From: Candidatus Omnitrophota bacterium
Lineage (GTDB): Bacteria > Omnitrophota > Gorgyraeia > Gygaellales > Profunditerraquicolaceae
Direction: 5' to 3'
DNA length: 64,000 nt
NCBI GenBank assembly: GCA_028715785.1
Contig: JAQURC010000002.1
Span: 140,322 to 204,321 of the forward strand
In this document: positions 44,084 through 44,174 of the stretch, piece by piece
Layout: each line of letters starts with the position of its first letter
How positions within the stretch are numbered: position 1 is the stretch's first letter
Notes under the pieces: generated by a model
Databases searched by the model: none
The model's input: the letters and a program-made list of their open reading frames with translations, nothing else
What the model was told of the DNA's origin: nothing
Position numbers and translations under genes: made by a program

Positions 44084-44174
44084 ATAAAGGGGACGGTTCT
44101 GTTTTTTATCCACAGAGTAGCTGACGTTTAAACGTCAGCTACAAAGTACAGAAAAATAGAACCGTCCCCTTTAT
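44084..44174. repeat. Nested palindromic element 2: outer arms AAAGGGGACGGTTCTGTTTTTT/AAAAATAGAACCGTCCCCTTT enclosing perfect inner palindrome GTAGCTGACGTTTAAACGTCAGCTAC
   Basis: Same architecture and GTTTAAAC core as element 1. Outer arms are near-identical to element 3. Located in the divergent region between the - strand 1067-aa gene and gatC. Confidence 0.65.

Follow-up and report, generated by a model that had tools for sequence, protein, structure and literature searches.

Genes of the RAYT type (REP-associated tyrosine transposase, REP standing for repetitive extragenic palindromic sequence) that lie between long inverted repeats at their ends (terminal inverted repeats, TIRs) have been described as TIRtrons or TIRYTs (Di Nocera, De Gregorio and Rocco 2013, BMC Genomics 14:522; PMC3733652). 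According to that study, some of the TIRs share the motif GGGGWSAS, TIR-repeat families are dispersed as singles and as dimers with variable spacers, GTAG repeats can be inserted within longer palindromes (for instance GTAG dimers in Anabaena variabilis and others), and one well-defined TIRYT group comes from the Acidobacteria. In REPIN-RAYT systems, RAYTs are, by published accounts, typically single-copy and vertically inherited (Bertels and Rainey 2011, PMC3116915; Nunvar et al. 2010, PMC2817692). The present analysis concerns three palindromic elements, called elements 1, 2 and 3, of a Candidatus Omnitrophota genome (contig JAQURC010000002.1); the 64-kb stretch of DNA that was analysed is called the window throughout, and loci of other genomes carry L numbers. 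The three hairpins are very probably mobile palindromic repeats whose arms are the TIRs of a RAYT-like Y1 transposase, and a second repeat family, tagged by GTAG, is nested in two of them.

The arm sequence GGGGACGGTTCTATTTTT was searched with up to 3 mismatches on both strands of the window, the expectation being taken from 100 shuffles. It has 6 matches, 3 per strand, against 0.08 expected, and none of the 100 shuffles reaches 6. The match starts (40723/40785, 44089/44152 and 61410/61431) form three inverted pairs, which lie where an earlier note on this DNA had placed three loci with shared inverted arms. The elements and their parts are the following.

40722..40803, no strand: element 1, whole nested hairpin, with arms GGGAACGTTTCTATTTTT (a diverged form, alike on both sides) and a GTAG-type palindrome in the loop
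40723..40740, + strand: left outer arm of element 1, a TIR-type repeat with 2 mismatches to the core
40785..40802, - strand: right outer arm of element 1, with the same 2 substitutions as the left arm
40741..40786, no strand: interior of element 1, one full copy of the second repeat family, by palindrome and family comparison
44082..44176, no strand: element 2, whole nested hairpin, with 25-nt arms AAATAAAGGGGACGGTTCTGTTTTT / AAAAATAGAACCGTCCCCTTTATTT that are 96% complementary
44117..44142, no strand: inner GTAG-type palindrome of element 2, GTAGCTGACGTTTAAACGTCAGCTAC, by frame scan
61410..61448, no strand: element 3, minimal arm dimer, with a perfect 19-bp stem, a loop of 1-3 nt and CTTTATTT downstream

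Whichever strand is folded, every element forms one long hairpin (z-scores -7.5 to -14.9); in elements 1 and 2 its minimum free energy (MFE) is -53 to -61 kcal/mol, in element 3 about -29 to -32 kcal/mol. Both arms of element 1 bear the same two substitutions (GGGAACGTTTCT), so that their pairing is kept, and the perfect palindrome ACAGTAGAGGAGGTTTAAACCTCCTCTACTGT spans 40747-40778 in its interior. The frame GTAG-N5-GTTTAAAC-N5-CTAC, whose two sequences the earlier note had quoted correctly, is found in the window only at 40750-40775 and 44117-44142, that is, in elements 1 and 2, with 0 expected; GTTTAAAC by itself is not enriched there (3 occurrences versus 1.5 expected).

The outer arms belong to a widespread repeat family. 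A scan of 185,579 species-representative genomes, in 8-kb blocks, for the exact 18-mer GGGGACGGTTCTRTTTTT returned at least 115 blocks; by our own estimate about 35 chance matches are expected in such a scan, and a few singleton matches in cultured genera resemble chance matches. Among the blocks listed, most are from Omnitrophota and Aminicenantes metagenome-assembled genomes (MAGs), with one closed Aminicenantes chromosome and one genome from a single cell among them, while others are labelled Smithella, Thermodesulfovibrionia, Planctomycetia or 'Eubacteriales'. Far from the window's three copies being the only ones, these blocks hold at least 90 arm pairs (dimers) and at least 56 solo arms, in unrelated gene neighbourhoods; among the matches listed, the loops between paired arms measure 0-181 nt, with lengths clustering at 0-10 and 15-25 nt. 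In each arm the outer part is A-rich and variable, and a near-invariant core, GGGGACGGTTCTATTT(TT), comes after it. Arms are near-identical throughout, and the 3-8 nt beyond the core vary yet stay inverted complements. One internal position switches between A:T, G:C and C:G (counts at this R/Y position: AU 70, GC 8, CG 5, GU 5), and the covariation score of the arm pairs is 0.132 versus 0.070 in shuffles, a value that none of 500 shuffles reaches. Pairing within the arm hairpins is thus maintained.

No gene family travels with the short hairpins, as judged from all-against-all clustering of the open reading frames (ORFs) in 115 genome blocks, and a full-text literature search with the arm sequence gave irrelevant eukaryotic matches only. 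A viral origin of the arms was rejected because 2.9 million viral contigs contain only 2 solo arm matches. Two further observations concern the distribution of the arms. Solo arms (L001 7396, L013 2882, L021 435, L064 102) often have in front of them one or two direct but truncated repeats of their own start (aaaaGGGGACGGTTC...), which form short tandem half-arm arrays. Two perfect arm dimers of this bacterial family also lie on a 3.3-kb contig of an archaeal MAG, labelled Candidatus Aenigmatarchaeota (L056), which is probably misbinned.

The arms are linked to a Y1 transposase. The link was first found at an Omnitrophota locus (L030) where two seemingly solo arms, inverted and 780 nt apart, enclose a 224-aa ORF (5934-6608). 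This ORF matches Pfam Y1_Tnp (E 1.4e-15), and its best NCBIfam match is REP_Tyr_transpos, the REP-associated tyrosine transposase, with 68 bits, under the cut-off of 80; the IS200 model scores 20 bits. On the closed Aminicenantes chromosome (L082), a 46-47% identical homologue is flanked likewise, its stop codon lying inside the right arm. A metagenome scan with these two proteins returned 80 loci, at 44-83% amino-acid identity: both arms are present at 69 of them, and most of the others are cut by contig ends. Within the units, which are 748-854 nt long, the left arm precedes the transposase ATG by 35-160 nt and is usually followed directly by a TTGACA -35 hexamer, and the right arm lies -3 to +54 nt from the end of the ORF. 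Arm variants change jointly on both sides of a unit; the GTTTCT/AGAAAC variant, the same as in element 1 of the window, flanks transposase genes at L157, L168 and L194.

The histidines of the HUH motif (H60 and H62) and Y120 are invariant in 28 transposase sequences. Searched against solved structures, the transposase profile finds E. coli TnpA-REP (4ER8) as its best match (E 2e-6), ahead of ISDra2 TnpA; a single sequence gave no match in the same comparison. The clade comprises 2,405 clusters at E <= 1e-30, annotated merely as 'transposase', and the 16-nt core of the arms is almost invariant across phyla and across transposases of only about 45% identity. Some units are 99-100% identical while their flanks are unrelated (L152/L153, L150/L152 and L137/L140), and the transposase unit itself has therefore moved recently. 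At L125 (960-2480), a unit with an in-frame stop and two tandem left arms adjoins a second, distant Y1-like ORF; this unit is a probable pseudogene.

Comparison of orthologous sites, the approach suggested by the earlier note, establishes each of the three copies in the window as an insertion polymorphism: in the closest relative, whose GatA is 92% and whose TilS is 90% identical, the flanking genes are conserved and none of the elements is there. In the window, two ORFs, 37940-40717 (+) and 40811-44014 (-), converge, and element 1 takes up the interval from one stop codon to the other. The corresponding site of L198 (GatA 92% identical) is empty, with two stop codons 3 nt apart, and that of L199 (GatA 90%) holds an arm dimer with a plain 16-nt loop, devoid of the GTAG palindrome and distinguished from element 1 by a compensatory A:T to C:G change. 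The sites therefore form a series, from empty to hairpin to hairpin with inner palindrome. Element 3 begins 5 nt past the stop codon of the PP-loop/TilS gene (tilS), with ftsH downstream; it is present with a decayed left arm in L202 and absent in L201 and L204, and the closest relative has no hairpin at this place; a more distant relative lacks the element as well. Element 2 stands between a divergent 1067-aa ORF and gatC (gatCAB), so that the gene contexts given in the earlier note, a divergent promoter region for element 2 and a position after tilS for element 3, were largely correct. It is flanked by the -35 boxes of two promoter-like sites, neither of which is part of the repeat.

44039..44066, - strand: promoter-like site for the 1067-aa ORF, directly left of element 2, TTGACA-16-TAAAAT, 11/12
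44186..44213, + strand: promoter-like site for gatCAB, directly right of element 2, TTGACT-16-TAAAAT with TG

The left site is conserved in L198 and L199, and the right one in L198, L199 and L200. Element 2 is missing from these three relatives, which have a different hairpin there or none. At no orthologous site compared is a target-site duplication visible. The series of empty site, hairpin, and hairpin with inner palindrome implies that the window copies are recent insertions, not conserved regulatory parts of gatCAB or tilS-ftsH. Such filled, half-filled and empty sites can serve as strain-level markers, and they exemplify, in nature, the insertion of one repeat family into the tip of a second family's hairpin.

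The hairpin that relatives have at the site of element 2 (corresponding to about 44070-44185 of the window) reads ACGACCCTGTTTCC-N10-GGAAACAGGGTCGT (L198 5605-5642, L199 5612-5649) and sits between the same two conserved divergent promoters. Since it differs from element 2, a hairpin has been kept at this site even though its sequence was exchanged. Among the loci examined, the ACGACCCTGTTTCC... hairpin does not form a repeat family. Also at element 2, the loop contains at 44106-44114 the sequence TTATCCACA, the DnaA-box consensus, in single copy in the window; a GTAG copy at L033 has TTATCCACG at the same place. The match is probably due to chance, because 22 of 100 shuffles give at least one.

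The inner palindromes form a second, independent family of GTAG-tagged, REP-like repeats. Seven further copies of GTAG-N5-GTTTAAAC-N5-CTAC were found at other Omnitrophota loci (L018, L027, L033 and L089), which come from the contig sets of three other MAGs. Their N5 halves differ (GGGAG, GGTGG, CGGAG, AGGAG, CTGAC) and are complementary every time, and it is because copies with such complementary changes occur mostly outside the arm pairs that the family is considered independent. All 9 copies, the 2 of the window and the 7 others, begin with GTAG. A stand-alone copy (L089 6213-6258) shares 89% identity over 46 nt with the interior of element 1, and the 5' flank of the inner palindrome of element 2, TTATCCACAGA, resembles that of the copy at L033 5044, TTATCCACGATA. 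The conserved centre with varying symmetric flanks, noticed earlier in the two window copies, thus extends to the seven others. The same note had seen in the inner palindromes a possible insertion, resembling a miniature inverted-repeat transposable element (MITE), into a pre-existing terminator hairpin. In keeping with the first part of that idea, the inner palindrome is a separate repeat within an older hairpin, as stand-alone copies and the L198/L199 site series indicate; what has to be revised is the nature of the outer hairpin, itself a mobile repeat with the TIR arms of a transposase.

Related arrangements were observed alongside. At L018 (3440-3656 and 237-330), GTAG-GTTTAAAC palindromes have behind them related half-units (cttaatctagRgaggttt...) in short tandem arrays, and one such array lies inside the 181-nt interior of an arm pair. 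Other GTAG...CTAC palindrome families, GTAGACCTACGCGGTCTACATATATGTAGACCGCGTAGGTCTAC and GTAGGGGCACGATGCATCGTGCCCCTAC, are present in the same kinds of genomes, GTAGACCTACGCGGTCTACATATATGTAGACCGCGTAGGTCTAC also inside arm pairs; they are located at:

L027: 1518-1561, 4489-4608 and 7590-7633
L114: 1603-1646 and 7531-7574
L176/L177: 42-69 and 2563-2590

We propose that the outer hairpins are non-autonomous arm dimers, devoid of transposase, of a family of mobile elements in which the arm is the terminal inverted repeat of a unit of about 750-850 nt coding for a RAYT-like Y1 (HUH) tyrosine transposase. The enzyme, encoded elsewhere in the genome, would recognise the arms and move or copy them without duplicating the target site. 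By analogy with IS200/IS605 and RAYT enzymes, recognition most likely concerns the arms folded as a single-stranded DNA hairpin, and the second, GTAG-tagged repeat would have landed in the single-stranded tip of the outer hairpin to give elements 1 and 2. A dimer placed behind a gene, as in elements 1 and 3, may act secondarily as a bidirectional intrinsic terminator or as an RNA-stabilising hairpin; this role is proposed because an A-tract and a T-tract border the G+C-rich base of the stem. Element 2 would simply be an insertion that is tolerated where two promoters diverge.

The anatomy of the arm pairs makes a bidirectional terminator effect plausible. The base of the stem, GGGGAC/GTCCCC, is followed by TTTATTT or similar; in 72 of 95 pairs the 8 nt downstream contain at least 5 T, both the A-tract and the T-tract are present in 59 of 95, and at least one of them in 88 of 95. 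In tandem gene contexts, 36 of 50 elements lie nearer to the upstream stop codon (median 15 nt versus 54.5 nt, p = 0.003), a bias that agrees with a side-effect as terminator or RNA stabiliser, but equally with selection against insertions that hit promoters.

Several observations weigh against this explanation or parts of it. The terminator role gains no support from the types of gene context in which the elements lie: tandem, divergent and convergent contexts (50, 12 and 11) follow the background of intergenic gaps (chi-square p = 0.85), divergent regions being held by 12 of 73 elements versus a background of 17.5%, so that a need for terminators does not explain where the elements occur; the gene calls underlying these statistics are crude, simple ORF calls. 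Within the 64-kb window, a transposase of this clade is absent. Identical arms mostly enclose loops that have no relation in sequence or length, even when a single genome is considered, as in MAG JBAZGE01 (loci L013, L016, L038, L043, L054, L074 and L098), which a simple copy-and-paste miniature element does not predict; compared with the interior of the transposase unit, the loops share 539 9-mers versus 464 ± 26 in shuffles, an excess that is weak and obtained in a saturated k-mer space. Set beside REPIN-RAYT systems, the arm GGGGACGGTTCTATTTTT has no GTAG tag, no internal self-complementarity and no stem-loop of its own. As for the inner family, a profile search of the 1.2 Mb of sequence examined revealed no Y1 gene flanked by GTAG-GTTTAAAC palindromes.

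A bolder extension, which we consider unlikely, is that arm dimers are retained by their hosts as a 'portable bidirectional terminator or insulator', distributed across phyla by the transposase. The near-invariant 16-nt code would then be kept by a Y1 clade diverged to about 45% identity (Omnitrophota, Aminicenantes, Syntrophia-like), and the hairpin tip would be the preferred landing pad of GTAG repeats, giving two levels of nesting. The loops might then stem from arm-by-arm insertion, or from cleavage and rejoining with capture of variable DNA, instead of copy-and-paste of the whole element.

Among alternatives to mobile repeats bounded by RAYT-like TIRs, the one that survives best is a closely related one: the units could be ordinary insertion sequences of the IS200/IS605 type, and the hairpins their classical MITEs, rather than anything of the RAYT/TIRYT type. 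The distinction is partly one of naming. The Pfam Y1_Tnp match is compatible with such elements, as is the absence of target-site duplications, which IS200/IS605 share, and near-identical units in different flanks together with many short contigs suggest multi-copy, active elements. The ends of IS200/IS605 elements, however, are different subterminal hairpins and not inverted repeats, whereas here the two ends are the same sequence inverted; the REP-associated transposase model scores far above the IS200 model, the profile is closer to E. coli TnpA-REP than to ISDra2 TnpA, and the loops of the short elements are not shared, unlike those of typical MITEs. We therefore regard this classification as improbable.

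Less support is left for a double-stranded site of a host protein, in which the arms or the GTTTAAAC core would be kept for that protein as inverted uptake pairs, a restriction-modification site or an operator. The near-invariance of the core next to varying loops and outer flanks, and the existence of solo arms, are what such a site predicts, and DNA-uptake sequences of Neisseria do occur as inverted pairs in terminators. But a spacing of 0-181 nt between arms is unfit for a dimeric operator, in dozens of diverged units the arms sit at fixed positions on either side of a transposase gene, and the same core is present in different phyla, whereas uptake sequences are lineage specific; moreover, no restriction-modification or competence gene lies consistently nearby in the 115 blocks. 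On variable arm spacing, transposase flanking and the cross-phylum core, the DNA-uptake or restriction-site idea was rejected, and a host-protein site in general is very unlikely. The earlier note's suggestion of a restriction-modification-type recognition site centred on GTTTAAAC finds no support either, the octamer being neither enriched nor avoided in the window; the conserved inner frame is better described as a GTAG-tagged REP-like palindrome.

It is to our mind scarcely credible that the elements form a family of RNAs, either structured small RNAs or hairpins regulating in cis, in which the stem stays constant and the loop varies with the target. Their hairpins are very stable and show compensatory changes, and variable loops of about 8-10 and 17-22 nt lie between constant arms, as this idea would have it. 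Searches of Rfam at gathering and permissive thresholds, however, yielded no family, only generic long hairpins below threshold, such as miRNA precursors. Both strands of these symmetric elements fold equally, there is no promoter that regularly accompanies them, close relatives differ in having or lacking them at housekeeping loci that are conserved, a transposase gene is bounded by the same arms, and the loops have no detectable relation to one another.

Least probable of all is that the hairpins are intrinsic terminators that evolved independently and are alike by chance or convergence: for all their G+C-rich stem base with an A-tract upstream and a T-tract downstream, the position of elements 1 and 3 directly behind stop codons and the closeness of the family to upstream stops in tandem contexts, this origin is refuted, as the earlier note had anticipated, by an identical 18-nt core in more than 100 loci of several phyla, which cannot come from convergence, by the same arms flanking a transposase gene in 69 of 80 loci, and by the lack of all three copies in the closest relative despite conserved flanking genes, to which may be added the occupation of divergent regions at the background rate and the failure of a simple terminator scan of the window to pick out these elements.

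Mobile repeats of the kind proposed here would explain the conspicuous intergenic hairpins of Omnitrophota, Aminicenantes and other uncultured lineages, which are otherwise annotated as terminators or candidate RNAs. Short-read assemblies are also broken by the repeats, as is seen from the many transposase units that lie on contigs of about 1 kb. The Y1 transposase of about 224 aa and its arm of 16-25 nt, which stays constant while the protein diverges, make a handy pair for the study of DNA recognition by TIR-associated, RAYT-like enzymes.

The window has other structured regions. A non-coding stretch of about 415 nt (8785-9201) forms one long hairpin (MFE -192.5 kcal/mol, z -7.9), with 44-nt inverted arms at 8864-8907 and 9068-9111, and direct repeats of 14 nt, CCCGC(C/G)TAATTATT, flank it at 8731-8744 and 9197-9210. 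A portion of the stretch shows 81% identity to another Omnitrophota MAG (L035 106-261), and Rfam gives no match for it; the stretch may be either a further miniature mobile element or a structured RNA not described so far. Ordinary RNA genes, namely tRNA-Met, tRNA-Val, a second tRNA-Met and a class A RNase P RNA, occupy the regions 25019-25181, 26324-26664 and 58174-58250.

Among known systems, the Correia/NEMIS elements and uptake-sequence pairs of Neisseria resemble the present repeats in being inverted repeats behind genes that are able to fold into terminator-like hairpins. Correia/NEMIS elements are moved by DDE-type transposases with target duplications, and uptake pairs are maintained by the competence machinery; the family described here differs in being linked to a Y1 transposase, with no duplication seen. 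With IS200/IS605 elements (IS608, ISDra2) it has in common a Y1 HUH transposase, the absence of target-site duplication and a presumed recognition of single-stranded hairpins. Its ends, however, are true inverted repeats (the same sequence of 16-25 nt), there is no tnpB, and the protein is closer to TnpA-REP; with one sequence, inverted, at both ends, it does not count as a classical IS200/IS605 element.

The inner palindromes resemble the published GTAG-tagged REPs in that they begin with GTAG, have stems of about 9-13 bp, and are multi-copy and intergenic, single or arrayed (L018); they are also nested in longer palindromes, as published for Anabaena variabilis and others. The published descriptions give an unpaired tag next to a stem-loop of 5-13 bp, whereas here GTAG pairs with CTAC, so that the inner element is a perfect palindrome reading GTAG on both strands. 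The invariant centre GTTTAAAC with its freely covarying N5 is specific to the inner family, and it differs further in that no cognate RAYT was found for it in the 1.2 Mb mentioned above. To REPIN-RAYT systems the outer elements are similar in several ways: a hairpin arises from two short repeats in inverted orientation, remnants are found as singlets, the location is intergenic, and the gene of the cognate Y1 transposase is flanked by the same inverted repeats. Unlike REPINs, their spacers are not conserved between copies, and the units are 99-100% identical at different sites in a clade that spans several phyla.

The closest match is with TIRtrons/TIRYTs. Here too, a Y1 RAYT-like gene, met in the related loci and not in the window, is flanked by long inverted repeats that are not of the GTAG type, and the same TIRs are dispersed as singles and inverted dimers (at least 90 dimers and at least 56 solo arms, with 3 dimers in the window). 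The arm start GGGGACGG agrees with the published GGGGWSAS at 7 of 8 positions, with G for A at position 7, in a comparison by the motif alone. The searchable literature yielded neither this specific arm sequence nor these hosts for it (Omnitrophota, Aminicenantes, Smithellaceae and others), and the 16-nt core is set apart by its near-invariance across phyla and about 45% identical transposases, as are the units by their recently mobile appearance. The family thus fits the known class of TIRtrons/TIRYTs and TIR repeats and is REPIN-like, without constituting a new class or mechanism; its less ordinary aspects are the near-invariance of the arms across phyla and strongly diverged transposases, and the heterogeneity of the loops.

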